The notes below the pieces were generated by a model. That model made no database searches and was not told the origin of the DNA. It saw only the letters and a list, made by a program, of their open reading frames with translations. The translations under genes and the position numbers were made by a program. Source: Sulfolobus acidocaldarius DSM 639 (GTDB lineage Archaea > Thermoproteota > Thermoprotei_A > Sulfolobales > Sulfolobaceae). Taken from it: a stretch of 32,000 bases of DNA. The stretch is taken from positions 1,830,001 to 1,862,000 of the forward strand of contig NC_007181.1 in NCBI RefSeq assembly GCF_000012285.1. Reading direction: 5' to 3'. Shown in pieces: positions 5,546 to 32,000 of this stretch (positions within the stretch are counted from its first letter, which is position 1; every line of letters begins with the position of its first letter).

Positions 5546-5902
5546 ATGCCAAGGGCTCAATTCTTTACGACAAAAGGTAAGAAATTGCATACATTGTACC
5601 TCATAAACTACGTAATGACCCTATTCATCACGGGTTATCTTGTAATAACCTTCAAATCCCTCTTACCTCTCGTGATTGTGGTAGAGCTAGTTCCGTGGAT
5701 ATTTATATTTAGATATAGTGGTGATTACGTGATTGTGAGCGAGAAGGGGTTAAAGTACAATGATGCTAAGATACCTCTCCTAGAGATCGAAGGTGTGAAG
5801 GTGATGAGCGGTAAAGACGGGACAGGAGACATAAAGATAGTGTGGAAAGAGGGCTGTATACTTTTTCATTGTCACAAAAATCTTTTTATAGTCATTTATT
5901 GA
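5546..5902 (+). CDS. Small membrane protein (two predicted TM helices plus a short soluble domain). The C-terminus is probably altered by the adjacent IS insertion.
   Basis: 118-aa ORF with hydrophobic stretches LYLINYVMTLFITGYLVITF and LLPLVIVVELVPWIFIF. The last ~15 codons (CILFHCHKNLFIVIY) run into the promoter region of the IS607 tnpA. I recognised no homology. Confidence 0.4.
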   Translation: MPRAQFFTTKGKKLHTLYLINYVMTLFITGYLVITFKSLLPLVIVVELVPWIFIFRYSGDYVIVSEKGLKYNDAKIPLLEIEGVKVMSGKDGTGDIKIVWKEGCILFHCHKNLFIVIY

Positions 5903-5912
5903 AACATTACTC

Positions 5913-6542: not shown

Positions 6543-7788
6543 TGATCACCTAGTTAGGACTGTAATGTTAAGCCTTAAAGTCAACTCAGAAGTTTATACA
6601 AGGCTCAAGGAGGTTGAGGAGGAGTATAAGCAAATACTTGAGGACGCCATAGATTACGGTTTAAGGAATAACATAAAGTCGTTTACAAGGCTTAAGGCCG
6701 GTATCTATAGGCAAGAAAGGGCTAGACACCCCTCTCTACCATCTCATTACATCTACACAGCTTGTGAAGACGCTAGTGCTAGGTTAAAGAGCTTTATGAG
6801 GAGGAAAAAGGAAGGAAAAACGTACACTGACAAGCCTGAACTTAGAAATGTTACTGTCCACCTAGACGACCACTTGTGGAGGTTTTCCCTAGGCGAAGTT
6901 AGGATTGCTACAAGAAAGGGTTGGGTGTCATTAAAGCCATTCTTCACTAAACTGTTCTGGAAGTACTACAATAAAGGTTGGGCTCTAGCTAGCGAGTCCT
7001 CTTTCAAACTGTGTAAAGGAAACGTGGTTAAGCTTTACCCAGTCTTTAAGAAACCATTACCAAAGCCTTACGACGTCAAGGGCTTCATACCAGTTGACTT
7101 AAACGAGGACAATGTTTCCTTACTGCTAGACGGCAAACCTTTACTGGTAGAGACTAGTGTTAAGAAGATTACTTTAGGTTATGCTTACAAGAGGAAGAGG
7201 ATTAGTGAGGGTAGGTCTACGAAGGATAGGGATGTTAAGAGGGCTTTGAAGAGCTTGAAAGAGAGGTTTAAGAAATTGGACATTCGTAGAAAGTTGGCTA
7301 AGCTGATTGTCACTGAGGCTTTGAGAGAGGGTAAGGGTATAGTGCTAGAAGACTTACCTAAAAATACTCCAGAGAAGATGGTTCAAGACATTAAGGACAA
7401 ACAGCTGAGGGACAGGATTTACAAGTCTGCTTTTGCATCTCTGAAAAATGCTATCGTAGAGAAGGCTAAGGAGTTTGGTGTACCTGTTTTACTAGTTAAC
7501 CCTGCTTATACTTCCTCTGTTTGTCCAATACATGAGTGTAAAATCATTTACCCACCCGATGGGAGCTCTGCTCCAAGGGTGGGCATGTGTGAGAAGGGTA
7601 GAGAGGAGTGGCATAGGGATGTAGTAGCGTTATACAACCTCTTAAAGAAGGCTGGTTATGTGAGCCCAATGCCGTTGGGCTCGAAGGAGTCCCATGACCC
7701 ACTCACCGTAAGATTAGGTGAGTGGTTGAGGGCTAAGTCCCTACACTTGACCTTGAATGTCAATAGAATGATGGGAATGACAGTGTAG
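6532..7788 (+). CDS. tnpB: TnpB/OrfB RNA-guided endonuclease (IS200/IS605-IS607 accessory protein)
   Basis: RuvC-like motifs are present: FIPVDLNEDN (D), GIVLEDLPKN (E) and EEWHRDVVALYNL (D). A Zn-finger-like CPIHEC...MCEKG...H lies between them. It has an 11-nt overlap with tnpA. Confidence 0.9.
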   Translation: MKSDDHLVRTVMLSLKVNSEVYTRLKEVEEEYKQILEDAIDYGLRNNIKSFTRLKAGIYRQERARHPSLPSHYIYTACEDASARLKSFMRRKKEGKTYTDKPELRNVTVHLDDHLWRFSLGEVRIATRKGWVSLKPFFTKLFWKYYNKGWALASESSFKLCKGNVVKLYPVFKKPLPKPYDVKGFIPVDLNEDNVSLLLDGKPLLVETSVKKITLGYAYKRKRISEGRSTKDRDVKRALKSLKERFKKLDIRRKLAKLIVTEALREGKGIVLEDLPKNTPEKMVQDIKDKQLRDRIYKSAFASLKNAIVEKAKEFGVPVLLVNPAYTSSVCPIHECKIIYPPDGSSAPRVGMCEKGREEWHRDVVALYNLLKKAGYVSPMPLGSKESHDPLTVRLGEWLRAKSLHLTLNVNRMMGMTV

Positions 7789-16164: not shown

Positions 16165-17460
16165 TCATCTCCCTCTTGCAATTAATGATAACAGAAGATA
16201 TAAAACAGTTTTATATCTCTCTTCATCTAATGATCCTCTTCTCTCCATTACACTTTTTAAAAATATTTTTGATATTCCAATTTTTTCCAAATATTTTTCA
16301 AAATCTATTTCACTGGGAGAGATGAGTTTAGTCTCCTTAGTTTTGCTCTTTGCTCTTACTCCCAATTTCTCACTAACCAAATCTCCAACCTTTTCCCCTA
16401 CTAATCTTGAAGTGGTAAACTTACCTCCTATTATAGATATTAGACCAGATACCCCATCTTCTCTTTCATGATCTAATATTGTGAAATCTCTACTGGCTTT
16501 TCTACCGTCCTCACTAGTTCTCATTAAAGGTCTAACAGAAGCGTAGGTTCTAATAACTCTCGTTTTAGATAATTCAGGCACTAATTGAGATCCTTCTTTA
16601 ATTAACATCTTCACGTCTTCATCTGATATAGTAAAATTATCTGGGTCTTCAATTATAGTTGCCGTAGTACCCAATATTGAAGTATCTTGATATGGTACTA
16701 TTATATCTCCATCAGAAGGTGGCCTAAGTCTGTTTAGCACTGCGTTATTAACCTTTTTTCCAAACACTGCCATTATTCCAGCTGTAGGCAATATGGGAAT
16801 CTCTTCTAATCCTGCCATTGTAATGATTTTAAACGCCCAAGGTCCCGAGGTATTTATTATTATATCACTTTTTATTAGGTTCATTTGATTAGTAATTTTA
16901 TCGAAAACCTTTACACCTTTTATCGAATTTCCATCCCTAATAAATTCTGTTACCTCATTGTACGTCATAATTCTAGCCTTGTTTAGTGACCCCGTTACGG
17001 CTATGCTTGATAAAAGATCATAACCATATACTACCTTATCCGGAACCCAAATAGCTATTTTTAAGTCTTTATTCACATAAGGTTCTTCTTGTAAGACTTG
17101 ATTATTATCAACTATCTTATGCTCTATCCCTAATTTCTTTAGGGAAGAAAGAAACTTATCTAAAAATTCCAGGTCTTCTTTAGTAATACCTAAAAATAAC
17201 CCCCCTGTATCTCTTATAGCGTGAGGAGCTATTTTCGAAATTATATTGTTTTCTTGAATGCACTCCTTTGCTGACTCAGGATCTGTTACGGCGTACCTAG
17301 CACCACTATGTAAAAGTCCATGGAACCTACCAGAAGTTCCAGATCCAATGTCTCTCCTTTCAACCAGAGTTACATCAATACCTCTTAAAGCCAAGTCTAA
17401 GGCAGTAAATAGACCATTGGCTCCCCCACCTATTACTAGAACGCTTGTTTTTATTTCCAT
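16165..17460 (-). CDS. FAD-dependent glycerol-3-phosphate dehydrogenase (GlpA/GlpD family, short form)
   Basis: VLVIGGGANGLFTALDLALRGIDVTLVE (dinucleotide-binding motif) and GSGTSGRFHGLLHSGARYAV (G3PDH signature). At 431 aa it lacks the C-terminal extension of bacterial GlpA. It is divergent from glpK. Confidence 0.9.
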   Translation of the reverse strand: MEIKTSVLVIGGGANGLFTALDLALRGIDVTLVERRDIGSGTSGRFHGLLHSGARYAVTDPESAKECIQENNIISKIAPHAIRDTGGLFLGITKEDLEFLDKFLSSLKKLGIEHKIVDNNQVLQEEPYVNKDLKIAIWVPDKVVYGYDLLSSIAVTGSLNKARIMTYNEVTEFIRDGNSIKGVKVFDKITNQMNLIKSDIIINTSGPWAFKIITMAGLEEIPILPTAGIMAVFGKKVNNAVLNRLRPPSDGDIIVPYQDTSILGTTATIIEDPDNFTISDEDVKMLIKEGSQLVPELSKTRVIRTYASVRPLMRTSEDGRKASRDFTILDHEREDGVSGLISIIGGKFTTSRLVGEKVGDLVSEKLGVRAKSKTKETKLISPSEIDFEKYLEKIGISKIFLKSVMERRGSLDEERYKTVLYLLLSLIARGR

Positions 17461-17661
17461 AAAAAACTAATTTATATTTTACATTTAAATTTTATTGCCA
17501 GCAGCTATGTTTATTGTTTCCACTTTTCATACTGAATTTCACAATCTATGATTTTTCTACTATGAAATTTAAATGTTGCAGGGAGCCGGTTTAGAATTAC
17601 TATAATATAATAGTAAGAAGTAATAAAGAGTAAACATCAAATAATTATAAATTATATTTTT

Positions 17662-17680
17662 TACGAAAAATTTTTATATG
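17662..17680 (+). promoter_or_regulatory. Putative glpK-glpF promoter (TATA TTTTTATAT), contained in a 19-mer that recurs at 25800-25818
   Basis: TACGAAAAATTTTTATATG ends 24 nt before the ATG at 17704. An identical 19-mer lies at 25800-25818. Confidence 0.4.
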
Positions 17681-17703
17681 AAAATAGAAATGGATAAAAT
17701 GCT

Positions 17704-19197
17704 ATGGCTGAAAAATACGTGATAGCCATAGACGAGGGAACTACTAGTGCGAGAGCTATCGTTTTTGACAAGGAATTAAACATTCTAGGAATAGGGCAAA
17801 ACGAGTTTACTCAATACTATCCTCAACCGGGTTATGTAGAGCATAGTCCTGAGGAAATATGGCAAGCTCAGTTGTTAGCTATAAATAAAGCATTAGAGAA
17901 AGCTAAGATAGATCGAAACAATATTTTGAGTATAGGTATAACGAATCAAAGAGAGACTACAGTGATGTGGGATACTAGAACGGGGAAACCGATATATAAT
18001 GCTATTGTTTGGCAAGATAGGAGAACTGCCCCAATAACTGATTACCTTAAAGCTAACTATTTGAGGTTGATAAAGGATAGGACAGGTTTAGTGCCAGACC
18101 CATACTTTAGTGCATCTAAGATAAAGTGGATTTTAGATAATATACCTAATGCTAGAGAGAAGGCAGAAAAAGGGGAAATAAAGTTTGGAACTATAGATAC
18201 TTACTTAATATGGAAATTAACTAACGGTAAAGCTCATGTAACTGATTATTCAAACGCGTCTAGGACTATGCTATTTAATATAAGAAAATTAGAGTGGGAC
18301 AGAGAAATATTGGAAATACTTAACATACCCGAGGCTATTTTACCTGATGTAAAGCCTTCAAGCGAGATTTATGGTTACGCTGAGATTCTTAATTCTTCTA
18401 TACCTATATCAGGAGACGCTGGAGACCAACAGGCTGCGTTGTTTGGTCAAATAGCATTCAACCAAGGAGATGTGAAATGCACATATGGTACTGGTAGTTT
18501 CATTTTACTTAATACAGGGAGTAACTTAGTTTCCTCTAACGATCTGCTAACAACTATAGCATGGGGGGTAGGTAAAGGAATCACATATGCTTTAGAGGGC
18601 AGTATATTCATCACTGGGGCAGCTGTTCAATGGTTCAGAGATGGTCTTAGAGCTATAGATGTATCTGATGAAATAGAACCTTTAGCCGGTAGCGTTCCAG
18701 ATAATGGTGGGGTGTATTTCGTCCCTGCATTTACGGGATTAGGAGCACCATACTGGGACCCTTACGCAAGGGGACTAATAATAGGAATAACTAGGGGTAC
18801 TACTAAGGCTCACATTGCTAGAGCGATATTAGAATCGATGGCATATCAGACAATGGATGTGTTAGGAATAATGCAGAGGGACTCTGGGATAAAGATAGAC
18901 GCACTTAAGGTAGATGGTGGTGCCTCAAAGAACGACTTACTAATGCAATTTCAAGCTGACATACTTAAAATGAAAGTAGTAAGACCGAAGATTATGGAAA
19001 CGACTTCGATGGGAGTTGCGATGCTAGCAGGCTTAAGTGTAGGGTATTGGAACTCTATGGATGAGTTAAAACAGAAGTGGAAAATTGACCAGGTATTTGA
19101 ACCTAAGATGGATGATGAATATAGGGAAAAATTATATTCAGGATGGAAAGAAGCAGTGAGAAGAGCCTTAGGTTGGGCTAAGACTATTGGGGGTTGA
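17704..19197 (+). CDS. glpK: Glycerol kinase
   Basis: [54 protein letters not shown] and [19 protein letters not shown] together match FGGY-family GlpK throughout its 497 aa. Confidence 0.95.
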
Positions 19198-19203
19198 GAC
19201 AAA

Positions 19204-20085
19204 ATGGCATCGGAAGTTGTAAGGGATAGTTTGTGGAGGTATTTTGCTGAATTTGTGGGTACCTTTATCTTAATGCTCTTCGGTGATGGTGCAGTAGTAG
19301 CGTCCTTAGTAACTAACGGTACATCACCGGGTTATGGATTTATTATGATATCATGGGGATTCGGAGTTGTCTTAGCAATTTACGCTGTAGGTCCAATAAG
19401 TGGAGCTCATATAAATCCAAACGTTACGTTAGCTTTCGCAGTTACAAAAAGGATGAAGTGGAGAGATGTAATTCCCTATATATTGTTCCAAACGTTAGGA
19501 GCAGCTGCTGCAGCAGGAATATTACTAGCCTGGTGGGGTAGCATTATTACTAAAATGGATCCTCCACCCACTTTATATGCCCAAGTAGGAGCATCGTTTT
19601 TTACAGAATATCCAAATCCATCCTTCTGGGGTCAATATTGGCCTAAAGAATTACTGCTACCAAATTCAGCGAGCGGGACTTCACTGTTTTCTGAAGTTAA
19701 TCAAGTATTTCCGTTATGGATAGGTGCTTTCGCTGAATTGCTGATGACTTTCTTACTCTTATTGATAGTCTTAGCGGTTACTGACACTGATTCACCGTTT
19801 TTCAATCAAAGCTTAGCTCCATGGGCTATTGGTATAGGTTATGTGATGCCATTCTTATTGTTTGAGGCTCAACTAACGGGGGGTATGATAAATGAGGCCA
19901 GAAGCTGGGGACCAATGCTAGCCCTTTACTTATTTGGGTATAGAACTGGAGCGTTCAACTTTAGAGGGCAGTATTTCTTCGTCTATGGTATCCCAGATTT
20001 TATAGGAGGCATCTTAGGTGCTCTGTTCTGGGATTACGTATTGAAGCCATATCTTAAATATCTAAAAAGCAATAATAAAAAATAA
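19204..20085 (+). CDS. glpF: MIP-family aquaglyceroporin (glycerol uptake facilitator) with non-canonical NPA boxes
   Basis: AEFVGTFILMLFGDG, ISGAHINPNVTLAFA (box 1 NPN) and LTGGMINEARSWGPML (box 2 NEA). It lies 6 nt downstream of glpK. Confidence 0.85.
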   Translation: MASEVVRDSLWRYFAEFVGTFILMLFGDGAVVASLVTNGTSPGYGFIMISWGFGVVLAIYAVGPISGAHINPNVTLAFAVTKRMKWRDVIPYILFQTLGAAAAAGILLAWWGSIITKMDPPPTLYAQVGASFFTEYPNPSFWGQYWPKELLLPNSASGTSLFSEVNQVFPLWIGAFAELLMTFLLLLIVLAVTDTDSPFFNQSLAPWAIGIGYVMPFLLFEAQLTGGMINEARSWGPMLALYLFGYRTGAFNFRGQYFFVYGIPDFIGGILGALFWDYVLKPYLKYLKSNNKK

Positions 20086-20090
20086 AATAG

Positions 20091-20101
20091 TTTTTTATTT
20101 T
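20091..20101 (+). terminator. Oligo-T tract downstream of glpF
   Basis: TTTTTTATTTT begins 6 nt after the stop codon. Archaeal termination commonly uses such T-runs. Confidence 0.35.
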
Positions 20102-20245
20102 ACTCCAACAGGTGTCTCCACTAAAGACTTTTTACAATTTCCTTAAGGTTGAAAACTATAAACGTCGATAGACACATAGACCAAAATACTCTATATTTTA
20201 GATAACTTTTTAAATAAGTTTTGTAATTCTAATTTGGTCAATATA

Positions 20246-21289
20246 ATGTATAGGGTTTCTGAGAGAGATATATATCATTTAGCGATAGGTAGTTCAGTTT
20301 TAGGCTCCGGAGGAGGAGGTAATCCGTTTCTAGGATATGAAATATTAAAGACGAAAATGAAAGAACTCAATAAAGACGAGCTATATTATGAACAGGAAAT
20401 AGCTGATAATGATTTCATTATTGGAGTAGGAGGTATGGGATCTCCATTGGTAGGTATAGAAAAAATACCAGCTGGTACAGAATATTTTAAAGCCTATGAA
20501 TGTTTATCTAAATTTCTCAAGAGAGAAGCATCCAGGATAACATCAATAGAAATAGGTGGTATAAACTCTGTGGTACCATTTATTGCCTCGTTATTCGCCA
20601 ATAAGCCCTTAGTTGATGGTGATTTGGAGGGAAGAGCTTTTCCAGAACTTTATATGACTACTTCGCATTTTATCGGTATAAATGCTACGCCAATGTGCAT
20701 AGTAGATGAGAGGGGTAATCAAGTAATTTTAGACTCTGTTGATAACTACTATGCTGAAAAAATCGCTAGAAGTATAACTGTTAGATTTGGAGGAAGAGGT
20801 TATATTGCTATTTATCCTATGAATGGAGAGAGTTATATTAAAAGTGCAATACTAGGGAGTATTTCGCTTAGCATAGATATCGGTAAAATACTGAATAATG
20901 AAGGACTGGATTCCATGTTAGATTATGTTAAGGGTAGGATTCTCTTTCATGGAAAAGTTATAGATGTAAGAAGAACTAATTTGCCAGGTTTCAACTCAGC
21001 TATAGTAACGATTCAAGGTTTAGAGGAATACAAGGATTACATTGCTAAGTTATACGTTAAGAATGAATACTTATTATTTGAAGTCAATAATAATATTGTT
21101 TCAATTGCACCAAATATAATAAATCTTGTAGATTATAGAAATAAAATAATTACGTCAGATATGATTAAATACGGTATTAGGGTTAGAGTTATCGGAATTC
21201 CCGTTTCACCAAAATGGAGAGAAATAGGAGGAGAAGAGATAATTTCAAAAAATATATTAAATGAGTATAAAAAATTATTAAATCTTTAA
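20246..21289 (+). CDS. DUF917-family protein, paralogue 1
   Basis: Family hallmarks as I remember them: LGSGGGGNP, GGMGSPLVGIEKIP, IEIGGINS and DGDLEGRAFPEL. ATG 20246 is preferred because TTTTAAATA lies about 30 nt upstream. The 3' end overlaps the convergent gene by 12 nt. Confidence 0.8.
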   Translation: MYRVSERDIYHLAIGSSVLGSGGGGNPFLGYEILKTKMKELNKDELYYEQEIADNDFIIGVGGMGSPLVGIEKIPAGTEYFKAYECLSKFLKREASRITSIEIGGINSVVPFIASLFANKPLVDGDLEGRAFPELYMTTSHFIGINATPMCIVDERGNQVILDSVDNYYAEKIARSITVRFGGRGYIAIYPMNGESYIKSAILGSISLSIDIGKILNNEGLDSMLDYVKGRILFHGKVIDVRRTNLPGFNSAIVTIQGLEEYKDYIAKLYVKNEYLLFEVNNNIVSIAPNIINLVDYRNKIITSDMIKYGIRVRVIGIPVSPKWREIGGEEIISKNILNEYKKLLNL

Positions 21290-22822
21290 TTCTCCCACAA
21301 CCTTCACGCTTACCTTTATGGCATTACCCGGTAAATATGGCATTTGCAACTCCTCAATTTCCCTAACTTCTATCGATGTTTCAATAGCCCCAGCCGATAT
21401 CGCAGTCTTCTTAGCTTCCTCTATTAGTGATTTAATTGCAATATCTCTATTTGTCTGTTCATATGAGAAGGTTCTCTCTATCGTAGCCCCAACTTTAGTT
21501 AGTGTACATCCAATAGCATTAGCATACTGGGCATTTTTAGGAATTACCAACTTAGAAGAGCCTTTCAAAATTTCCGGCAGCATAATGCTTCCTCCTCCTA
21601 CTCCTATCACTATAACGTCTTCCTTAGAAGTTTTCATAATGTCTATGGCGTTCTCCCAGGATTCTACCATTTTATTGTAAATCTTTTTAAGGTATCCATC
21701 TAAGTATTTATTTCTTACAAGTTCTGGGTTAGATCCCTCAATCTTGATTCCCTTAACCACCATTGAAACGTCAGTAGTAGTAAAAGTATCTCCTCCCCAA
21801 GATAATCCTCTTTTGGTAAGCATGAAACCCACGCTCTCTGGCCCTATTTCTTCTCCTCTTATAATTGTCCCTCCACCTAATGCTAAAGTGTATATGTCTG
21901 GCATTCTAAAATTCGTTCTTATTCCGGCTATCTCAACTGGACTTGCTGATTCCCTTGGATATCCCTTATACAGAACTCCAACATTGGTTGTTGTGCCTCC
22001 GATATCCATAACAATAGCGTCTGTTATTCCCGTTAGTAAATGAGCTCCTCTTATACTATTTGAAACTGGTCCTGCTACTGTGAATATGGGAAACTTTTTA
22101 ATGAATTGTGCAGAAGCGATAGTACCATCATTCTGAGCAAAATAAAGTTCTACATTTTCTAAACCGAGCTTATGAAGAAGAGATTGTAAAATTTGTATTA
22201 AATTATTAAAAATGTTTAGGATTAATGAGTTAAGTATTGTAGCATTTTCCCTTTCTATAAGGCCAATACCTCCTATTTGATGTGACAACGTTATTGGTAC
22301 GCTTATTCCTTCCTTTAATAAAATATCCTTAACTCTGTTCTCGTGCTCTGGATTAACTATGGAAAATATTGATGTTATCGCTACACTATCAACTTTTCCA
22401 TTTATCTCACTAGCTATTTGATATATCTTGTTTTCATCGAGAGGTAGTATCTCTTCTCCAGTATATTCATGTCCTCCTCTTACTAAATGCACGCTAGTAA
22501 CAAAGGATCTGAGCCCTTCTGGCCACTCCATAAGAGGAGGAACGCCCTCTCCAGCAGGTAATCCTATCCTAATGACAGCTACTCTATTTAGCCTTTTAGC
22601 TTGATGTATCGCATTTAATCCATGAGTAGTCCCTATCATTAAAGCTTTAATTTCATTTTTCCTCTCACCAAGGTTTTTTATAACCTCAGTTATAGCGTTA
22701 AGTAATCCCTCTGTTAGATCTGGTGTGGTTTCTACTTTTGTAGCATATATTAAGTTTCTTCCTTCTAGTGCTACTGCGTCAGTGTGCGTACTACCTATAT
22801 CTACACCAATTTTTATAGCCAT
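21278..22822 (-). CDS. Hydantoinase/oxoprolinase-A-family protein, short form (HyuA-like ASKHA ATPase)
   Basis: MAIKIGVDIGSTHTDAV (phosphate-1), VMDIGGTTTNVG (phosphate-2) and GVGGGSIMLP. At 514 aa it is shorter than the canonical 680-aa HyuA also present in this window. Confidence 0.8.
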   Translation of the reverse strand: MAIKIGVDIGSTHTDAVALEGRNLIYATKVETTPDLTEGLLNAITEVIKNLGERKNEIKALMIGTTHGLNAIHQAKRLNRVAVIRIGLPAGEGVPPLMEWPEGLRSFVTSVHLVRGGHEYTGEEILPLDENKIYQIASEINGKVDSVAITSIFSIVNPEHENRVKDILLKEGISVPITLSHQIGGIGLIERENATILNSLILNIFNNLIQILQSLLHKLGLENVELYFAQNDGTIASAQFIKKFPIFTVAGPVSNSIRGAHLLTGITDAIVMDIGGTTTNVGVLYKGYPRESASPVEIAGIRTNFRMPDIYTLALGGGTIIRGEEIGPESVGFMLTKRGLSWGGDTFTTTDVSMVVKGIKIEGSNPELVRNKYLDGYLKKIYNKMVESWENAIDIMKTSKEDVIVIGVGGGSIMLPEILKGSSKLVIPKNAQYANAIGCTLTKVGATIERTFSYEQTNRDIAIKSLIEEAKKTAISAGAIETSIEVREIEELQMPYLPGNAIKVSVKVVGELKI

Positions 22823-23892
22823 GTTACATCATTCCTCTTCTCTATTGGTTCATAATCTATGTTGTAACCAAAAACTCTAGGTCCTATATATTTTAATGCC
22901 TCTTTTGTTCTGAGCCTTTCATGAGCGGGAATTCCTATTATCAAGACTTTCTGACCGTATTTGATCCTATCAGTTGTTATTGGTTTAAAGGTAAACATGT
23001 CTAAAACAGTTATCAGATCTGGAACTGAAACTAGCACATTATCTTCAAGAGTTGCAATCAAGAACTCATTCTGAAAATCTATTTTTAAGGATTTATTAGA
23101 ATACTCCTCCATTCCTTCTATTACAACAAACCCTCTCGAAAATCCCTTCTCTATTCTTCTGATAACGTCAATAACCTTTCCCTTAAACAATATTTTAGCT
23201 TTTAAGTAATCTAATACTTCATTGAACTTAATCTGATTTAACAATTCACCTATATGTAGCGCTAAAGATAACGTATCTAAGACTGCCGTTTTATTATACA
23301 TGTTTAACGTGGTTCCATAGAGGGATATATATGCTGCTCCGCCATATCTCAGAGTGATAACCCTAGCTATTTTTTCAGCCCATACACCATCTATTCCTTC
23401 TACTACCGAAACGTTTCCCCTCTCATCTAGAACTATTACTGGAGATGGATCTACTCCATAAAAATAAAACGTAGTCATCTGGAGTTCTGGAAACGCTCTT
23501 CCCATACCATCTCCATCCAATACTGGTAAGCCTAAAGCTGAAGCAACTATAAGAGGAATAGTTGAATTCACCCCACCTATTTCCAAAGGAGTAATGTATT
23601 CAACTTTTCTACCCGTAATTTCTGAGTATATTTTTAGTGCTTTATTAGCCTCATCTCCGCTCGGTATCTTCTCTATCATAACTATTGGAGCACCCATCAT
23701 AGCACTTCCGACCACTTGGGCGTTATTACTTTTGGCATTTCTTATCACTTCTACTGGTCCCCTTCTCTCTATAGCTCTCTTGAGCATTAAGCCTCCTATG
23801 TATGGATCTCCTCCCCCTCCAGTACCTAAGAAAGCAGCGCCAGTCACCAAATTATTTACGTCCGAAGACCTTATAGTATATGTTTCCATCAA
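22813..23892 (-). CDS. DUF917-family protein, paralogue 2
   Basis: LGTGGGGDP, MMGAPIVMIEKIP, LEIGGVNS and DGDGMGRAFPEL. It is roughly 40% identical by eye to paralogue 1 and overlaps the downstream HyuA-like gene by 10 nt. Confidence 0.8.
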   Translation of the reverse strand: MMETYTIRSSDVNNLVTGAAFLGTGGGGDPYIGGLMLKRAIERRGPVEVIRNAKSNNAQVVGSAMMGAPIVMIEKIPSGDEANKALKIYSEITGRKVEYITPLEIGGVNSTIPLIVASALGLPVLDGDGMGRAFPELQMTTFYFYGVDPSPVIVLDERGNVSVVEGIDGVWAEKIARVITLRYGGAAYISLYGTTLNMYNKTAVLDTLSLALHIGELLNQIKFNEVLDYLKAKILFKGKVIDVIRRIEKGFSRGFVVIEGMEEYSNKSLKIDFQNEFLIATLEDNVLVSVPDLITVLDMFTFKPITTDRIKYGQKVLIIGIPAHERLRTKEALKYIGPRVFGYNIDYEPIEKRNDVTWL

Positions 23893-23893
23893 T

Positions 23894-24283
23894 TTACACC
23901 TTTATTATTGAATATCCTTTTTTATATGCGAGATATAATAACGATGCTCCCCATATTGCTTGAATTATTGACATTAAGCTTTCTATAGCCACTATGAAAA
24001 TTGTTGTATATAGTATTGGAGCATAAATTATTGAGATGTAACCAAGTGCGAAGGAAACTATTAGCCATGAAAATTGAACTCCGGCTCTTGTCCTATCCTC
24101 TATGTTATTGTTTCTGAGATATCTTATAGCATCCCAAATACATAAAAATAGAATCAAAACTCCATATGTTAAATTATAAATTTTGACAAAATAAGCCACA
24201 TCTGCCATATATAGGCTAATGTATGCTATGCTTATTAAGAAATTTACTACTAAATAATATGTAAATAAATTGTTTACATTCAT
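23894..24283 (-). CDS. Small 4-TM membrane protein, unknown function, translationally coupled to the NCS1 permease
   Basis: 129 aa with four hydrophobic helices. Its ATG overlaps the permease stop (ATGA, 24280-24283), and it ends 1 nt before the DUF917 start. Confidence 0.55.
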   Translation of the reverse strand: MNVNNLFTYYLVVNFLISIAYISLYMADVAYFVKIYNLTYGVLILFLCIWDAIRYLRNNNIEDRTRAGVQFSWLIVSFALGYISIIYAPILYTTIFIVAIESLMSIIQAIWGASLLYLAYKKGYSIIKV

Positions 24284-25647
24284 GATAATCTCCCACCTTT
24301 ATAAGTGTAGGGTAAGATCTCTGGACTTTTCCCTAGTAATTCAAAAATGTAGTATATTAGAATATATGCTAAGAAACCTGTTATCAATGCGTTTATTGCA
24401 GGTATACCATATGGAACTATAAATCCTACTAGTGCACCCAATCCTAATGCTACTACACCAGCAATATTAAGATTATAGTAAGCGTTACCAGGTTTAAACT
24501 TATACCTTTCATGAGGGTCTTTAACTCCTTTTAAGTAACTTCTTACAATGAAGAAGTCAGCAATTACTATACCTCCCACAGGTGGAAGTATGTTTCCTAA
24601 TACGGTTATAAAATTTTCAAAGGGAGTTATAGATGAACCTGCGGTAAATCCTACATATGCTGCAACGGCGGTCCCTATTACACCATTAATCACTGATGCT
24701 AACTCTCTTCTCATCGGATATAAGTTAACAAGAGATAAAGATCCACTATATAGGTTATCTGTATTTATTATGAATTGACCAAATACTATAATCAGTAATA
24801 CACCAGCTCCCATACCTAATTCTAGCATAGCGTTAGTGACTAAATATGTACCAGTTACTAGAACCATTGCCACGCCGCCTAATATCAGGAAGGGATAGAG
24901 GAAAATTATGTGTGCTACCCAGGCTACACTAGCGTCTTTTGCGGTTTTACCAAATCTAGCTATGTCCGGGGATATTATAGTTCCTGCGCTATATAATCCT
25001 ACAGTGGCTGATATTCCGTCTAATAAACTCATATGTGATGTTGGTGCAGCAGACATGACAGCGGAAAATCCACCTTTTAATGCAATCACTATCGCAATAC
25101 CTATTGCAATTAACCATATATGAAATGGAATTGTAAAATAGCTTAAGAACGATAGCATTTTATATCCTATATACGTCATCACGATCATTATTATACCTCC
25201 CCAAATTGCTGCGAAACCAACCGAAAAGAAAGGATTATTGGGAAATATCTCATTCATAACTATACCAAATAGCCATGTCTCAACAGCATACCAACCAATT
25301 CCAGTAGTTACTGTAATTAACAAAAATCCAGCAATTTTTCCTCCCCATCTACCTAGAGGAAATCTCCATAATACGTAGGTCGAAAGTCCACTATATGCAC
25401 CTATGGAGGCAGCTAGCCCACCTAAGATTGTTAGCACTATAGTACCACCTAACACTGCTATTATTGCCTGACTGAATGTTAAACCATACCCTAATGCTCC
25501 TCCAGCCCATATTACAGCTATAGCACCATAAACAGAAGCAAACACTAAAAACATGTTATAGAATCCGTATCTGGACTGCTTAGGTACTTCTTCTAGTGAA
25601 TAATCATCAAATTTTGAAGTTTCCTCTTTACTTTTTTTTCCTTCCAT
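24280..25647 (-). CDS. NCS1-family permease (purine/cytosine/hydantoin/allantoin type, CodB-like)
   Basis: 455 aa and about 12 TM helices. It has the N-terminal EEVPKQSRYGFYNMFLVFAS...WAGGALG motif typical of the purine-cytosine permease family. Confidence 0.8.
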   Translation of the reverse strand: MEGKKSKEETSKFDDYSLEEVPKQSRYGFYNMFLVFASVYGAIAVIWAGGALGYGLTFSQAIIAVLGGTIVLTILGGLAASIGAYSGLSTYVLWRFPLGRWGGKIAGFLLITVTTGIGWYAVETWLFGIVMNEIFPNNPFFSVGFAAIWGGIIMIVMTYIGYKMLSFLSYFTIPFHIWLIAIGIAIVIALKGGFSAVMSAAPTSHMSLLDGISATVGLYSAGTIISPDIARFGKTAKDASVAWVAHIIFLYPFLILGGVAMVLVTGTYLVTNAMLELGMGAGVLLIIVFGQFIINTDNLYSGSLSLVNLYPMRRELASVINGVIGTAVAAYVGFTAGSSITPFENFITVLGNILPPVGGIVIADFFIVRSYLKGVKDPHERYKFKPGNAYYNLNIAGVVALGLGALVGFIVPYGIPAINALITGFLAYILIYYIFELLGKSPEILPYTYKGGRLS

Positions 25648-25836
25648 ACTCTAAGTTAACTTAGTAATAATAATAAATTTTTACATGTTATTTAAGGATA
25701 AATTTACTTTTCAAAATATTCAGTTATATGTAAGCCTTTGTTTCAAGGTTACCTTGCAATATCGAACTATGGAATAAAATCACTTTAGACTACTAGATAT
25801 ACGAAAAATTTTTATATGGGATGGGGCGAAATTTTT

Positions 25837-26316
25837 TCACTCTAGAATTGTAGCGCCCCACGCCTTATGGGATCTTATTGCAAAATTTATCTTGTAATCC
25901 ATCACAGCATCGTGATTGATTATAGTTAAAATCTCCTCCTTTAACTGAACTGGATCAGAATGAAAAACTCTTACCAGAAGATCCCATTCTCCTACATATT
26001 CAGATATCTCATAAATTAGTTCATTGGAAAGCAAAGACTTTATGTAGGTCTGTCTTAGTTCTTTTACATTCTTTAATTTCACAAGTACATCAGCATAAGG
26101 TACACCTAGATTTTGAAGAACTACAACTCCTATGACTTTCAGAATTTTCTTATTTTCTAATCTCAACCTTCTCATTCTAATAGTAGTTTTTGATAATCCT
26201 ATTTCTCTAGCTATCTTAGCATCTGAAGTGTTAGCGTTGTTATTCAATATTTTTAAAATCTTAATGTCCTTTTCATCAAGGTATTTAGAAAGTATATCTT
26301 CCCATTTTTTTGCCAT
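25837..26316 (-). CDS. Lrp/AsnC-family transcriptional regulator
   Basis: DEKDIKILKILNNNANTSDAKIAREIGLSKTTIRMRRLRLE (HTH) followed by a RAM-type C-terminal domain (ADVLVKLK...LLVRVFHSD). It is divergent from hyuA. Confidence 0.85.
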   Translation of the reverse strand: MAKKWEDILSKYLDEKDIKILKILNNNANTSDAKIAREIGLSKTTIRMRRLRLENKKILKVIGVVVLQNLGVPYADVLVKLKNVKELRQTYIKSLLSNELIYEISEYVGEWDLLVRVFHSDPVQLKEEILTIINHDAVMDYKINFAIRSHKAWGATILE

Positions 26317-26423
26317 TTCATGTCAACTATAATTTTTTAAAAATAAAAACCTTATACTCCTTGTTCTTTGAATGGATTTAGTAGTTCAAAAGACTATGTG
26401 TTATTAAACTTTAGAAAACAAAT

Positions 26424-26435
26424 CCTTAAATTTTT
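26424..26435 (+). promoter_or_regulatory. Putative hyuAB TATA box
   Basis: CCTTAAATTTTT is centred about 26 nt upstream of the ATG at 26455. Confidence 0.3.
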
Positions 26436-26454
26436 GTAGATATCCAATTAAATA

Positions 26455-28497
26455 ATGATAAGAATTGGAATAGACATAGGAGGCGCATTTACGGACTTGG
26501 TGTATTATGACCAGAGCAATGATGAGTTCGAGTGGATCAAAGTAGAGACTACTACGCAAGATCCTTCGATAGGCGTAATAAGAGCTGTAGATGAATCAAA
26601 AGTCGATTTGAAAAATGCAAACGAGATTATTCACGGTCAAACGTTAGCTATAAACACTATAATAGAGAGAAAGGGAGCTAAAGTAGGGCTTATTACTACG
26701 AAGGGATTTAGAGATATTCTTGAAATACAAAGAGCAAATAGGAGAGACATGTATAATTTCAAGTATAAGAAACCAGAATCATTTGTTCCAAGATATTTAA
26801 GAAGAGAAGTAAGTGAAAGGATATCGTCATCTGGAGAGATAATATCGCCTTTAAAGATTGAAGAATTAAAAATAGTGGTTAACGATCTTGTAAAAAAAGG
26901 TGTGGAATCTATTGCTGTCTCCCTCATAAACTCATATGTTAATTCTGCTCATGAATTAAAAGTAAAGGAATTATTAAAGGAAATTCTAGGGGATAGCGTT
27001 TTCATCAGTCTCTCGCATGAGATTACTAGAGAATGGGGAGAATATGAGAGAACAAATACAGTAGTGCTGAACGCCTATATTAAACCTAAGATGAACAACT
27101 ATTTGAGAAAGCTAAAAAAAGAGATAGATAAAAGAGGATTTAAAGGGAAATATTACGCTATGCTCTCGAACGGTGGGATGGCCACATTTGATTTCACTAT
27201 GGACTTTCCTATCACCACATTAGAATCCGGTCCAGTGGCAGGTATAATAGGGGCTATCGCAATAGGCGAGTTGGCTCATGAGAAAAACATCATAGGATTA
27301 GATGGGGGAAGTACTACTACTAAGGCCAGCCTCGTAGAGAACTTAATGCCTAATATTATAACTGATTATTATATTGAAAGGAATCCATATTCACCAGGCT
27401 ATCCTGTAAAAGTTCCTACAATAGATATTGTAGAGGTAGGAAATGGGGGTACCAGTATTGCATGGATCGACGAGATAGATAATCTCAAAGTAGGACCAAG
27501 GGCAGCTGGTTCATATCCTGGACCAGCTGCATATGGTAGAGGAGCAACTGAGCCGACTGTCACCGATGCATATATTCTCTCTGGGCTACTCAATCCTAAT
27601 GAGCTATTAGGAGGAAAATTGAAAGTGAGAAGAGACCTAGCAGAGAAAGCCATAAAAAGGATAGCAGATCACTATAAAATCTCTGTTGATGAAGCAGCTG
27701 AAGGCATAGTAAGATTAGCGAATAATAACGCGGTAAATGTAATAAGATTAGTTTCTGTTCAAAGAGGATATGACCCTAGAGACTTTGTTCTAATTGCATA
27801 TGGAGGTTCTGGACCAATGTTTGCTCCTTTCATAGCTGAAGAATTAGACTTAAAGAAAGTTATAGTACCTTTTGTACCACCTGGTGTGTTTTCTGCTTGG
27901 GGAATGCTAGTAGCCGATATTAGGCATGACTTAGTTAAAACTGAATTGGTTAGGATAGACAAGGAAGATGCCATCAATAAAATTAATAGTGTATTTGATG
28001 AATTGGAGAAAAAGATTTTGCAATTCTTTGCCTCAGAGGGATTTAATGCAAATGATGTCATGATATTTAGAGAAGCAGAAATGAGATATTATGGGCAATC
28101 ACATACAGTCAAGGTTAACGTTATGAACGGAGAATTAAGAGATAAAGAGATTGGTGAAATAATAAATAAATTCCACTTGCAACATGAGGCGACCTACTCC
28201 TTTAAATCGGCTAGTCCTATAGAAATCGTTAACTTCCGTGTATATGGAATAATTAGAGCAAAAAAGGTACCATTATTAAAGCGTAAACTAAACGGTAATA
28301 GTATTAAGGAAAGTACTAGAAACGTATTCATAAATGGCAAATACGAGGAGTTTAAAGTCTACGATAAGTCTACATTGTCTACAGACTGTAAAGTTCATGG
28401 TCCTGCTATATTAGAAGATCCAACATCAACGATAATAATACTTAAGGGACAAAGAGGGGAAATAGACGATTATGGTAATGTAATAATTACGAGGTGA
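26455..28497 (+). CDS. hyuA: Hydantoinase/oxoprolinase/acetone-carboxylase family, A (beta) subunit
   Basis: MIRIGIDIGGAFTDLV, TTKGFRDILEIQR, GLDGGSTTTKAS and IAYGGSGPMFAP. The 680-aa length is typical of HyuA. Confidence 0.85.
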   Translation: MIRIGIDIGGAFTDLVYYDQSNDEFEWIKVETTTQDPSIGVIRAVDESKVDLKNANEIIHGQTLAINTIIERKGAKVGLITTKGFRDILEIQRANRRDMYNFKYKKPESFVPRYLRREVSERISSSGEIISPLKIEELKIVVNDLVKKGVESIAVSLINSYVNSAHELKVKELLKEILGDSVFISLSHEITREWGEYERTNTVVLNAYIKPKMNNYLRKLKKEIDKRGFKGKYYAMLSNGGMATFDFTMDFPITTLESGPVAGIIGAIAIGELAHEKNIIGLDGGSTTTKASLVENLMPNIITDYYIERNPYSPGYPVKVPTIDIVEVGNGGTSIAWIDEIDNLKVGPRAAGSYPGPAAYGRGATEPTVTDAYILSGLLNPNELLGGKLKVRRDLAEKAIKRIADHYKISVDEAAEGIVRLANNNAVNVIRLVSVQRGYDPRDFVLIAYGGSGPMFAPFIAEELDLKKVIVPFVPPGVFSAWGMLVADIRHDLVKTELVRIDKEDAINKINSVFDELEKKILQFFASEGFNANDVMIFREAEMRYYGQSHTVKVNVMNGELRDKEIGEIINKFHLQHEATYSFKSASPIEIVNFRVYGIIRAKKVPLLKRKLNGNSIKESTRNVFINGKYEEFKVYDKSTLSTDCKVHGPAILEDPTSTIIILKGQRGEIDDYGNVIITR

Positions 28498-28502
28498 TAT
28501 GA

Positions 28503-30227
28503 ATGGATCAATTTACCTTAGAAATAATTAAGAACGGACTAATAGTAGCTTCTGAAGAAATGTTTTACGCTTTCGGTAGAACCGCCAGAAGTCCTGTAAT
28601 ATATGAAGTGTTAGATTTCGCTGTAGGTATAACTGATAAGTATGGTAGAGGTCTTGTGGTACAAGCTCCAGGTGTCCCAGGATTTTCTGGAGTGTTGGAT
28701 TTTACCATAAGGGAAGTAATGGCTAAGTGGAAAGATGAGATAAAACCTGGCGATATGATTGCTACTAATATACCATATGATGGTGGAACTCACTTAAACG
28801 ATGTAGCTCTGATAATGCCGATGTTTTATAAGGATATTCTCCTAGGCTTCATTGTTAATAAAGGACATTGGAGTGAAATAGGAGGAATGCATTTTGGGAG
28901 TTGGACGTCAGACGCTACCGAAATATATCAAGAAGGACTTCAGTTACCTTCCATAAAATTATTCATAGAAGGTAAACCCAATAGAGATGTAATTGACATT
29001 ATAAAGGCTAATTCCAGAATGCCTGATGCCACATTAGGGGACATGGATGCACAATTAGCATCAATGAGAGTAGCATACAGGAGAGTTCAGAGGTTGGTCA
29101 TGAAATATGGCGTTGATAACGTTTTAACGGCGATGGATAAGCTAATAGAAGATGGAGAGAGATTAAGTAAGTTGAGACTGAAGGAGCTACCTAAGGGTGT
29201 ATACGAGGCAGAAGATTACATAGACGATGATGGAATATCTGATAATCCAGTTTATGTGAAAGTAAAAGTTACCATTACTGAGGATAAATTTATAGCTGAC
29301 TTCACTGGAAGTTCTAGGCAGGTTAGAGGACCAATAAATTCTCCATTACCTGCAACAGTCTCTGCAGTGAGAGAAATATATATGGCAGTTACAGATCCTT
29401 ATGCTCCGCCTAATGCTGGGTATTTTAAACCTCTAGAAGTAATAGCTCCAGAGGGTAGTATATTTAATCCTAGTAGACCAGCTCCAACATCAACCTATTG
29501 GGAGTCGATGTCGTATGCTACAGATTTAATATGGAAAGCGTTAGCTCCTCACGTTAACGGAAGACTTCCAGCCGGACATTTCTTATCAATTCTCGCTACC
29601 ATACTAGGGGGTGTTAAGGAAGATGGAGAACCTTTTGCAATTGTGGAACCACAGCCTGGAGGATGGGGAGCAAGTAATAATTCCGATGGAGAAAGTGGAC
29701 TGGTAGCTAGTGGGGATGGAGAAACATATATAGCTTCAGCTGAAGTGTACGAAAAGAGGATGCCAATTCTAGTAGATAGATTGGAATTAAACGTTAGTGA
29801 TGGAACTGGTCATGGAAAATATAGAGGAGGATTTGGAATAATAAAGGACTACATCGTAATGAGTGAACAAGCTTACCTCACAGTTTCAATAGGGAGGTCA
29901 AAGTACCCTACATGGGGAGTTGAGGGTGGAATGAATGGGACGCCAAATTATTGTATGATATTTAAGAGAGGAGAAGAACCTAAGAGGATGAGAAAAGTAG
30001 CCTCATTATTGCTTTATAAAGGTGATAAAGTAAGTTTAAGAAGCGGAGGAGGTGGAGGTTGGGGTAATCCAGCGGAAAGAGATCCCAATCTGGTTTTAAA
30101 TGATGTACTCAACGAATATATTAGTGTAGAAGACGCTGAAAAGATCTATAAGGTAAAAATTAAGGAAACTAACGGAATCTATGAGATAGACTGGGAAGGA
30201 ACTAAGAAGATAAGGATTAACAAGTAA
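28503..30227 (+). CDS. hyuB: Hydantoinase/oxoprolinase family, B (alpha) subunit
   Basis: DQFTLEIIKNGLIVASEEM, YDGGTHLNDVALIMP, GDMDAQLASMRV and GGGGWGNPAERDP (conserved HyuB C-terminus). It lies 5 nt downstream of hyuA. Confidence 0.85.
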   Translation: MDQFTLEIIKNGLIVASEEMFYAFGRTARSPVIYEVLDFAVGITDKYGRGLVVQAPGVPGFSGVLDFTIREVMAKWKDEIKPGDMIATNIPYDGGTHLNDVALIMPMFYKDILLGFIVNKGHWSEIGGMHFGSWTSDATEIYQEGLQLPSIKLFIEGKPNRDVIDIIKANSRMPDATLGDMDAQLASMRVAYRRVQRLVMKYGVDNVLTAMDKLIEDGERLSKLRLKELPKGVYEAEDYIDDDGISDNPVYVKVKVTITEDKFIADFTGSSRQVRGPINSPLPATVSAVREIYMAVTDPYAPPNAGYFKPLEVIAPEGSIFNPSRPAPTSTYWESMSYATDLIWKALAPHVNGRLPAGHFLSILATILGGVKEDGEPFAIVEPQPGGWGASNNSDGESGLVASGDGETYIASAEVYEKRMPILVDRLELNVSDGTGHGKYRGGFGIIKDYIVMSEQAYLTVSIGRSKYPTWGVEGGMNGTPNYCMIFKRGEEPKRMRKVASLLLYKGDKVSLRSGGGGGWGNPAERDPNLVLNDVLNEYISVEDAEKIYKVKIKETNGIYEIDWEGTKKIRINK

Positions 30228-31363: not shown

Positions 31364-32000
31364 TCACTTTACCTGGGTCAATTTGTCCTGAAGGGGTGCG
31401 AATTTAGGTTGGTCATAAATGTCTTTAATTTCGGCGAACTGGCTTTCCTTCTGGTCTAACACCATTAAACCTATTCCCCTGGACTTCCCACCGCCGACGA
31501 ATGTGCCCACATTGACCATGAACTTTAAGGTCTTTAGCCATAATTCGCTCTGTCCTGCCTGTTTACTGTTTCCCTGACTACTGTCTCTCAATACCACATT
31601 GACGTCTATTTTATATACGTTGAGTATCTCCTCTGTGAAAAGGTGTCCCTCTAAATTCTTTTTATTCTTCCTGTCAATGACCACATGCGTCCTCTCCACT
31701 ATATCAGCCTGCCTTATAACACTATCTGAAATAGTTAAAGCAGAGGCAAAGTACTCACTTCCATATAACCTCTCCACAGGACAGTTCCACAGTAAATATA
31801 ACCTCACCATTTCTTTCCTGTCATTCGAATCCTCTAGTCCCTTACTCTTCAGTATTTTCTTAAACCTCATATCAAAGCAGTTTGAATTGAGGCAGCTTTC
31901 GATTTGTTTCAACTCGTTCTGATATCTACTCAGGTCCTCAACAGGGTGCTCCTCCATATGGTCTTTGTCGTTAACTATCATCTCACTCACTCTCCTGAAT
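31364..32000 (-). CDS. Type III CRISPR-associated RAMP protein (Cas7 group: Csm3/Cmr4/Csx7/Cmr6-like); the 5' end probably lies beyond the window
   Basis: CPVERLYGS...LTISD (RAMP C-x-x-x-LFG motif), THVVIDRKNKKNLEGHLFTEE (IDR...LF.E core) and a C-terminal Gly-rich loop VGGGKSRGIGL. The reading frame stays open to base 32000 upstream of the GTG at 31990, and the canonical N-terminal strand is not seen. Confidence 0.75.
   Translation of the reverse strand, partial: FRRVSEMIVNDKDHMEEHPVEDLSRYQNELKQIESCLNSNCFDMRFKKILKSKGLEDSNDRKEMVRLYLLWNCPVERLYGSEYFASALTISDSVIRQADIVERTHVVIDRKNKKNLEGHLFTEEILNVYKIDVNVVLRDSSQGNSKQAGQSELWLKTLKFMVNVGTFVGGGKSRGIGLMVLDQKESQFAEIKDIYDQPKFAPLQDKLTQVK

Follow-up and report, generated by a model that had tools for sequence, protein, structure and literature searches.

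A short HyuA-type ATPase linked to DUF917 proteins in Sulfolobus acidocaldarius and across all three domains of life

The 32,000-nucleotide stretch of the Sulfolobus acidocaldarius DSM 639 chromosome analysed here (contig NC_007181.1, positions 1,830,001 to 1,862,000; hereafter the window, from whose first letter all positions are counted) contains an eight-gene island, Saci_2035 to Saci_2042. Three genes at one end of this island encode an unusually short ATPase of the hydantoinase A type (sHyuA) and two proteins of the DUF917 family (paralogues U and D). sHyuA is very probably a functional partner of DUF917, and the three proteins may constitute a single ATP-driven enzyme system in which DUF917 stands in the place of HyuB. 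The three genes are as follows:

20234..21289, plus strand: DUF917 paralogue D, Saci_2035, 351 aa (Pfam), convergent with sHyuA; probable start ATG 20246
21278..22822, minus strand: sHyuA, Saci_2036, 514 aa, short HyuA-like ASKHA ATPase (Pfam, AlphaFold2 model), terminal gene of a four-gene operon
22813..23892, minus strand: DUF917 paralogue U, Saci_2037, 359 aa as called (Pfam, AlphaFold2 model); probable start ATG 23889

Linkage of sHyuA to DUF917

A scan of one genome per species yielded at least 556 relatives of sHyuA, and 80 loci from Bacillota, Actinomycetota, Chloroflexota, Proteobacteria and archaea were kept. A sequence-only reading of the window had noticed that the short HyuA lacks a HyuB and is bracketed by two DUF917 proteins, and had proposed that such co-occurrences be counted; the count agrees with it, as DUF917 directly abuts sHyuA at 77 of the 80 loci and is found within all 80, with HyuB next to sHyuA at none and anywhere in the locus at two. 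The two parallel systems envisaged by the same reading are better described as one module with a lineage-specific addition in the Sulfolobales, HyuAB being missing from 78 of the 80 loci. The junctions between the sHyuA and DUF917 genes are mostly of -4, -1 or -8 nt. DUF917 forms a run of one copy (37 loci), two (28), three (11) or five (1), with no copy in the run at three loci, and an NCS1 permease gene is present at 43 of the 80. The pairing also holds in the reverse direction: in a set of 80 metagenomic DUF917 loci, sHyuA is adjacent in 67 and nearby in one, and the other 12 contigs are too short to judge, so that sHyuA is present in 68 of 68 informative cases and absent from none.

A concatenated query of sHyuA and DUF917 was compared with 1.84 billion cluster representatives, 1,169 of which matched at E<=1e-30. 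These are drawn from each of life's three domains, and the supposition of a catabolic route particular to a thermoacidophile was therefore too narrow. Among the best 149 representatives (at 50% identity), from which architecture was determined, 98 are single-chain fusions, 97 of them in the order sHyuA to DUF917 and one in the order DUF917 to sHyuA, and HyuB is found in none of the 149. The fusion architecture is borne out by Pfam, with an identical truncated Hydantoinase_A footprint. Fusions are encoded by Anaeramoeba, Pelomyxa, Naegleria, Willaertia, Ancoracysta, the fungus Hyaloraphidium, the starfish Acanthaster and the abalone Haliotis, whose proteins are annotated merely as 'hydantoinase' or 'uncharacterized'. 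The fusion is thus already visible in databases, JGI for example giving such proteins the name 'N-methylhydantoinase A.../DUF917 family protein'. A few of the fused chains reach great length (P0261, 2715 aa; P0289, 3066 aa; P0308, 2540 aa; P0255, 1451 aa), with large regions beyond the sHyuA and DUF917 domains.

The DUF917 copies are ordered by position as well as by sequence. In a neighbour-joining tree of 155 DUF917 sequences, the convergent copy of the window, DUF917-D, groups with the Thermoplasmata DUF917 whose gene follows sHyuA downstream within one operon, and with the copies of Saccharolobus and Acidianus added, this D clade was recovered in 200 of 200 bootstraps, which argues for an ancestral order U-sHyuA-D and an inversion of D in the Sulfolobus lineage. 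By its place in the tree, DUF917-D is assigned as an ortholog of the operonic downstream copy of the Thermoplasmata and as a component of the module. U and D, which share 41% identity, are anciently diverged paralogues, and the archaeal version of the module uses both. The D1, D2 and D3 copies of Actinobacteria form three position-specific clades in the same tree.

Because adjacency is near-obligate in both directions, fusions exist in both orders and DUF917 paralogues fall into position-specific clades, a functional tie between sHyuA and DUF917 is predicted with high confidence. The opposite explanation, that functionally unrelated genes are fortuitous neighbours, has a vanishingly small probability, as it is effectively refuted by the 77 adjacent pairs, the 68 informative reverse cases, the 98 fusions and the conserved order of the paralogues.

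Individual loci illustrate the variety of arrangements. Caldivirga has DUF917 and sHyuA overlapping by 4 nt, together with NCS1 and a small open reading frame (ORF); Acidiplasma has DUF917-sHyuA-DUF917, again with NCS1 and a small ORF; and in Thermococcus an Lrp gene stands beside DUF917-sHyuA-NCS1-racemase. Incidental support is found in two bacteria: in Clostridium difficile the expression of CDR20291_1615-1617 (permease, DUF917, hydantoinase) shifts together, and in Lactobacillus rhamnosus the permease, DUF917 and hydantoinase have consecutive accessions. In many genomes two sHyuA-DUF917 pairs stand side by side, often around a single NCS1 gene (L007 at 3615-6488, L008, L009, L017, L018, L043, L044, L051, L065 and L082), which suggests that the paired modules are duplicates with different specificities. 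The Brevibacillus fluminis locus L017, in addition to its two sHyuA-DUF917 pairs, has an operon (17080-21554) in which a divergent DUF917 immediately precedes a canonical HyuA-HyuB pair.

Domain composition of sHyuA and the DUF917 paralogues

The 514-aa protein had been called a hydantoinase-A-family ATPase, and Pfam finds both Hydant_A_N (135 bits) and Hydantoinase_A (86 bits) in it, the latter only over profile positions 1-175 of 291. Hydant_A_C (PF19278) has no match in sHyuA but scores 74 bits in the window's 680-aa HyuA, with which sHyuA shares 30% identity, alignable over residues 3-355 only. The phosphate-1, phosphate-2 and adenosine motifs of ASKHA proteins are invariant (D8-G10-T12-D15, D273-G275-G276 and G409-G411), the invariant motifs extend through to the C-terminus, and length is narrowly kept at 511-543 aa among the 80 genome loci. 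The AlphaFold2 model (predicted local distance difference test score, pLDDT, 89) superposes over its full length on HyuA subunits in Foldseek, with query template-modelling scores (TMq) of 0.77-0.79 to the caprolactamase alpha subunit and N-methylhydantoinase. Over the HyuA subunits of 6yra, 9h03, 5l9w and 5svb the range is 0.72-0.79, and for the nucleotide-free 5svc the score is 0.65; the enzymes matched are caprolactamase, N-methylhydantoinase, acetophenone carboxylase and acetone carboxylase.

These comparisons bear on the possibility that sHyuA is not a substrate kinase at all, and serves DUF917 as an ATP-dependent activase, chaperone or maturation factor, after the manner of the ASKHA proteins that activate 2-hydroxyacyl-CoA dehydratases and benzoyl-CoA reductases, or of GlmL/MutL. 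Weak matches of sHyuA to BcrAD_BadFG, MutL/GlmL and CoA_E_activ models (Pfam, NCBIfam) and Foldseek matches to HgdC-type activators and ATPase subunits of benzoyl-CoA reductase (TMq ~0.3) would fit such a role. However, the matches to HyuA subunits are far stronger (TMq 0.77-0.79, E 1e-24 to 1e-30), the N-terminal domain specific to HyuA is retained, sHyuA has no conserved iron-sulfur cysteine motif, and permanent 1:1 fusions would be unusual for an activase that is independent of the catalytic cycle; a role as activase is considered improbable.

The 351-aa and 359-aa proteins had been placed in DUF917 from the sequence alone, and the domain search suggested with that assignment returned S-Me-THD_N (PF06032, formerly DUF917) and S-Me-THD_C (PF20906) for both (E 1e-43 to 1e-60). 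The respective scores are 166 and 148 bits in the 351-aa protein and 185 and 203 bits in the 359-aa one, where 27 would suffice. The renaming to 'S-Me-THD-like', mentioned in the same place, was correct, and the description of the family as essentially uncharacterised was out of date, NCBIfam having equivalog models for two desulfurases. The window proteins align with these models over about 320 residues; they score 56.3 and 59.6 bits against the thiohydantoin desulfurase NF058529 (cut-off 440), and 43.1 and 72.4 bits against the S-methyl thiohydantoin desulfurase NF058532 (cut-off 450). With 43-72 bits where 440-450 are needed, they are judged to be members of the family and not the desulfurase equivalogs themselves. 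The DUF917-U model (pLDDT 90) has 2o3i as its sole structural match (TMq 0.81-0.82, 25% identity), and a profile search of the PDB with the DUF917 alignment found no solved desulfurase.

A GGGG loop and the residues E74, K75, E104, N109, D126, D128, R132, E173, R177 and E276 are kept in all DUF917 clades and in both window paralogues. D292 is N in the convergent DUF917-D; the other family-invariant polar residues are kept in both. Since all clades keep the invariant residues, the extra DUF917 copies look catalytically intact and not degenerate. One DUF917 per sHyuA is sufficient, as Bacillota and the eukaryotic fusions have a single DUF917, and the presence of two copies suggests a hetero-oligomer.

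A possible enzyme system and its alternatives

In the HyuA/HyuB enzymes N-methylhydantoinase, 5-oxoprolinase, caprolactamase and acetone carboxylase, the HyuA subunit uses ATP to phosphorylate a carbonyl or enol oxygen, after which hydrolysis or carboxylation is brought to completion by HyuB. By analogy, Saci_2035-2037 may be one enzyme system in which sHyuA works with DUF917 in the functional slot of HyuB and ATP drives the reaction, a proposition for which we regard the chances as evenly balanced; sHyuA and DUF917 probably form a physical complex. A small N-heterocycle (a hydantoin, an imidazolone, a lactam or a pyrimidine-like compound) would be imported by the CodB-type NCS1 permease together with the small membrane protein that accompanies it. 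sHyuA would phosphorylate the ring carbonyl (the lactim oxygen) with ATP, as HyuA subunits do, and DUF917, occupying the role of HyuB with an unrelated fold, would perform water addition-elimination at the activated sp2 carbon. Attack by water is proposed because the relatives of DUF917 named in NCBIfam swap sulfur for oxygen at C2 of (S-methyl)thiohydantoins, an addition-elimination at an imidate-like carbon. This specific chemistry, in which sHyuA supplies a phosphate leaving group and DUF917 directs the water, is offered more tentatively than the enzyme system itself. What the Lrp-type regulator responds to is probably the substrate or a product resembling an amino acid. The HyuAB pair, on this view an addition made to the island by the Sulfolobales lineage, may serve to open either a second amide bond or the ring of the product. 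It is conceivable, with somewhat less than even confidence, that the module represents a universally distributed and hitherto unrecognised class of ATP-driven ring-transforming enzyme, present in archaea and many bacterial phyla and, as single-chain fusions, in protists, fungi and marine animals, in which a DUF917 hydrolase non-homologously replaces HyuB and acts on a phosphorylated lactim, the archaeal form having a heteromeric DUF917 pair.

Several observations weigh against a joint enzyme of sHyuA and DUF917. Comparison of the DUF917 model with solved structures detected no fold similarity to HyuB, so any replacement of HyuB would be non-homologous and the case for it is one of analogy. The invariant positions of DUF917 hold acidic residues, Arg or Gly and include neither His nor Cys, a set that does not seem an obvious fit to a Zn or Mn site like that of HyuB. 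The DUF917 enzymes characterised so far are not known to require ATP. Enzymes that catalyse successive steps can likewise come to be fused or to share an operon. The DUF917-HyuA-HyuB operon of Brevibacillus fluminis and the presence of HyuAB in the same island in Sulfolobales indicate that DUF917 can coexist with HyuB instead of substituting for it. Finally, neither an N-carbamoyl-amino-acid amidohydrolase nor any other downstream enzyme recurs near the module among the surveyed loci, and thus the classical route from hydantoin to amino acid is not evident.

Alternatively, sHyuA and DUF917 may be consecutive enzymes. DUF917 would then act on its own as a hydrolase, replacing a substituent of the ring in the manner of the thiohydantoin desulfurases, so that a hydantoin or lactam results; sHyuA would catalyse a separate ATP-dependent step on the product or precursor, HyuAB would open the ring in Sulfolobales, and co-localisation and fusion would reflect pathway coupling only. 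The characterised members of the DUF917 family are named as simple desulfurases by NCBIfam, DUF917 shares an operon with HyuA-HyuB in L017, HyuAB is linked to the module in the Sulfolobales island, and enzymes of successive steps are commonly fused. Yet no HyuA-type protein is known to finish its reaction without a second catalytic subunit, and HyuAB is missing from 78 of the 80 loci. The pairing of sHyuA with DUF917 is near-obligate both ways, and overlaps of 1-8 nt, which preserve stoichiometry, together with fusions in both orders are more typical of subunits. Consecutive action is rated as rather unlikely.

A second 5-oxoprolinase or lactamase, detoxifying pyroglutamate or related lactams that form spontaneously at high temperature and low pH, is another identity that the module might have. 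S. acidocaldarius has been reported to grow on pyroglutamate and to have ATP-stimulated activity, the Thermococcus module adjoins PxpABC-type genes and a transporter of the SSF kind, regulators of the Lrp type are found with the module, and the lack of recurrent dedicated downstream enzymes fits a standard amino acid as product. This identity has only a small probability: the published candidate in S. acidocaldarius is another pair, Saci_0368/0369, induced on glutamate; the module is common in mesophiles and animals; and the CodB-type NCS1 carrier is not a known transporter of pyroglutamate.

HyuA/HyuB is the textbook system by which unreactive rings and ketones are opened or carboxylated at the expense of ATP, and the present finding points to a second, equally widespread solution, in which the same type of ATPase is kept and its catalytic partner is exchanged for an unrelated fold. 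If sHyuA and DUF917 do act as a joint ATP-driven enzyme, identification of the substrate would tell what thousands of 'hydantoinase/DUF917' genes do, and might define a new route for salvage or detoxification of nitrogen heterocycles; it would lead to re-annotation of many 'hydantoinase/oxoprolinase family' and 'DUF917' genes, including those of gut Firmicutes such as C. difficile and L. rhamnosus. The question is directly testable in S. acidocaldarius, which is genetically tractable and has the genes in a compact cluster, with three to five for enzymes and a single one each for transporter and regulator. In the full-text literature searched, no functional study, substrate or assay was found for the sHyuA-DUF917 pair, which receives only incidental mentions, and no paper was found that discusses the pairing.

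The rest of the island and comparison with known systems

The remaining features of the island are:

23894..24283, minus strand: small membrane protein, Saci_2038, 129 aa (hydrophobic segments), with ATGA coupling to NCS1
24280..25647, minus strand: CodB-type NCS1 permease, Saci_2039, 455 aa (Pfam Transp_cyt_pur), first gene of the operon
25648..25836, no strand: promoter region of the NCS1 operon (sequence), with a 14-bp palindrome
25837..26316, minus strand: Lrp/AsnC-type regulator, Saci_2040, 159 aa (Pfam helix-turn-helix), in the same direction as the NCS1 operon and divergent from hyuA
26317..26454, no strand: divergent lrp/hyuA promoter region (sequence)
26455..28497, plus strand: canonical HyuA, Saci_2041, 680 aa (Pfam, three HyuA domains)
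28503..30227, plus strand: canonical HyuB, Saci_2042, 574 aa (Pfam Hydantoinase_B)

The sequence-only reading was accurate on the layout of the island: the eight ORFs within 20234-30227, their coordinates and strands, the order of the operon and the convergent 12-nt overlap were all read from the sequence as it gave them, and its labels of canonical hyuA/hyuB (680 and 574 aa), NCS1 and Lrp/AsnC are matched by Pfam. The numbering Saci_2035-2042 is anchored by the published tags Saci_2039 (NCS1) and Saci_2042 (HyuB). The glycerol genes glpK and MIP (Pfam) lie immediately upstream of the cluster. At the junctions, the ATGA at 24280-24283, in which the stop codon of NCS1 overlaps the start of the 129-aa ORF, and the 10-nt overlap of DUF917-U with sHyuA (22813-22822) stand as described, whereas the '1-nt gap' and the left edge of the cluster shift by a few bases on account of the probable starts ATG 23889 and ATG 20246. 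The TAA stop codon of the 129-aa ORF is followed by one base and then by the TTG-ATG of DUF917-U; the true start is likely ATG 23889, since the NCBI protein that is 100% identical to DUF917-U begins at this ATG and has 358 aa. DUF917-D probably starts at ATG 20246 (347 aa) and not at TTG 20234, and is probably expressed as a leaderless transcript from its own promoter, in view of the TATA-like sequence TTTTTAAATAA located 27-37 nt upstream of the ATG (window 20209-20246). The convergent overlap of sHyuA and DUF917-D, 12 nt at 21278-21289, is also kept in Saccharolobus and Acidianus, where it is 26 nt.

The transporter Saci_2039 matches Transp_cyt_pur with 68.9 bits (cut-off 23.5) and the NCBIfam cytosine permease (CodB) equivalog with 187.7 bits, below its cut-off of 326; its only solved relative is CodB (7qoa). 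Such a permease points to a small planar N-heterocycle as the likely substrate. A chemostat study reports Saci_2039 as upregulated under nutrient 'overfeed' (glutamate/glucose excess); other locus tags of the cluster were not found in the supplements searched. The 129-aa Saci_2038 has about four hydrophobic segments, in agreement with its earlier description as a 4-TM protein, and no match in Pfam or NCBIfam; like DUF917-U, it is 100% identical to an S. acidocaldarius protein at NCBI. Its sequence homologues are confined to Sulfolobales and the archaeal metagenome-assembled genome L006; in Caldivirga and Acidiplasma, small ORFs (122-135 aa) that follow NCS1 downstream were likened to it by position and weak similarity.

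Possible regulatory elements were sought in the promoter regions. A perfect 14-bp palindrome, CTAAGTTAACTTAG, occupies positions 25652-25665, 4 nt upstream of the NCS1 start and downstream of the TATA-like sequence CCTTAAATAA, and could be an operator or a hairpin in the 5' untranslated region. The regulator Saci_2040 has an AsnC-type helix-turn-helix domain (47.6 bits, Pfam); Pfam gave no match to a C-terminal ligand-binding (RAM) domain at E<=0.01, although the NCBIfam LysM model aligns over residues 13-140. The Lrp gene has the same position in L006, L086 and L087, and an Lrp gene also adjoins the module of Thermococcus. A shared Lrp operator was not evident from k-mer enrichment in 11 promoter regions of four syntenic loci, which did not rise above shuffles, and the promoter scan for such an operator gave merely positional footprints and the one palindrome. 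A scan for sigma-70 promoters and terminators gave fewer matches than shuffles, its bacterial model not being applicable to an archaeon.

The canonical HyuA (Saci_2041) has all three of the domains Hydant_A_N, Hydantoinase_A and Hydant_A_C. Saci_2041 and Saci_2042 score 520 and 240 bits against the caprolactamase CapA and CapB equivalogs of NCBIfam, not reaching the cut-offs of 1000. Saci_2042 matches Hydantoinase_B with 563 bits, and its nearest solved relative is N-methylhydantoinase (262 bits). The entire eight-gene layout is kept in Saccharolobus, in Acidianus and in L006 (61% identity) while the flanks differ, which argues that the Lrp-HyuAB arm and the sHyuA-DUF917 module move together in the Sulfolobales lineage.

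The recurrent neighbours of the module are transporters (NCS1, Pot-like and Dpp-like ATP-binding cassette systems), regulators (PucR, sigma-54, TetR, MalT/LuxR and Lrp), the racemase-like Asp_Glu_race and AroM, DUF1177, short-chain dehydrogenases/reductases and nitroreductases; no other recurrent catabolic genes were found near it among the surveyed loci. Genes of the DUF1177, AroM, Asp_Glu_race and nitroreductase families adjoin the module in L001 (9569-11235), L005 (11988-12743), L030 and six Clostridia loci (for example, L039 at 5294-6082). No solved relative of DUF1177 was found. Genes for DUF917, racemase and AroM have been reported as enriched around cyclodipeptide-oxidase genes, in a paper that speculates that DUF917 proteins are hydantoinases, and this shared set of neighbours hints at chiral substrates resembling cyclic dipeptides or hydantoins.

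Elsewhere, the window begins at the edge of a CRISPR array, with a direct repeat at 11-35 on the minus strand (Rfam CRISPR-DR25, 44.6 bits against a gathering score of 36). A 418-aa ORF with a Cas12f1-like TNB domain (6532-7788, plus strand) is probably the TnpB of an IS200/IS605-type element, and a 208-aa ORF (31364-31990, minus strand) contains a glycine-rich GGGKSRGIG motif that, by motif alone, is reminiscent of CRISPR RAMP proteins. The plus strand at 2110-4594 carries a Ppx/GppA-family gene and, after it, two thymidylate-kinase-like ORFs that overlap each other (213 aa, and 210 aa with only a weak match), where the G+C content (0.47-0.48) is above that of the rest of the window.

The sHyuA-DUF917 module resembles an ATP-dependent ring hydrolase of the HyuAB type, yet has neither Hydant_A_C nor a HyuB partner. 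The HyuA/HyuB superfamily includes N-methylhydantoinase (EC 3.5.2.14), the eukaryotic-type 5-oxoprolinase (EC 3.5.2.9), caprolactamase, and the acetone and acetophenone carboxylases. sHyuA shares with it Hydant_A_N and an ASKHA ATPase core with intact nucleotide motifs, and the surroundings of the module recall classical hyu clusters in their NCS1 permease and racemase-like genes, with a canonical HyuAB in the same island. In contrast, sHyuA is about 165 aa shorter and has HyuB neither as a neighbour nor as a fusion partner (0/80 and 0/149), DUF917 being its invariable partner.

The (S-methyl)thiohydantoin desulfurases, which catalyse steps of bacterial ergothioneine and S-methyl-ergothioneine catabolism, belong to the same two-domain family, S-Me-THD_N/C, as the window DUF917 proteins, and the chemistry shared with them is likely, by analogy, to be a hydrolytic substitution on a nitrogen-flanked sp2 carbon of the ring. 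The window DUF917 proteins differ in having an ATPase as obligate partner and in the absence of ergothionase or thiourocanate hydratase genes from their surroundings. CV_3147 of Chromobacterium violaceum (PDB 2o3i), a structural genomics target with no assigned function, provides the only solved structure of the DUF917 fold, and has the GGGG, E104 and DxDxxGR motifs in common with the window proteins. The prokaryotic 5-oxoprolinase PxpABC is a precedent for ATP-dependent lactam hydrolysis by components that are not homologous to HyuAB, although sHyuA and DUF917 have no sequence relationship to PxpABC. For the transporter, CodB (7qoa) is the closest relative both among solved structures and in NCBIfam, but Saci_2039 has a translationally coupled 129-aa membrane partner, and none is known for CodB.

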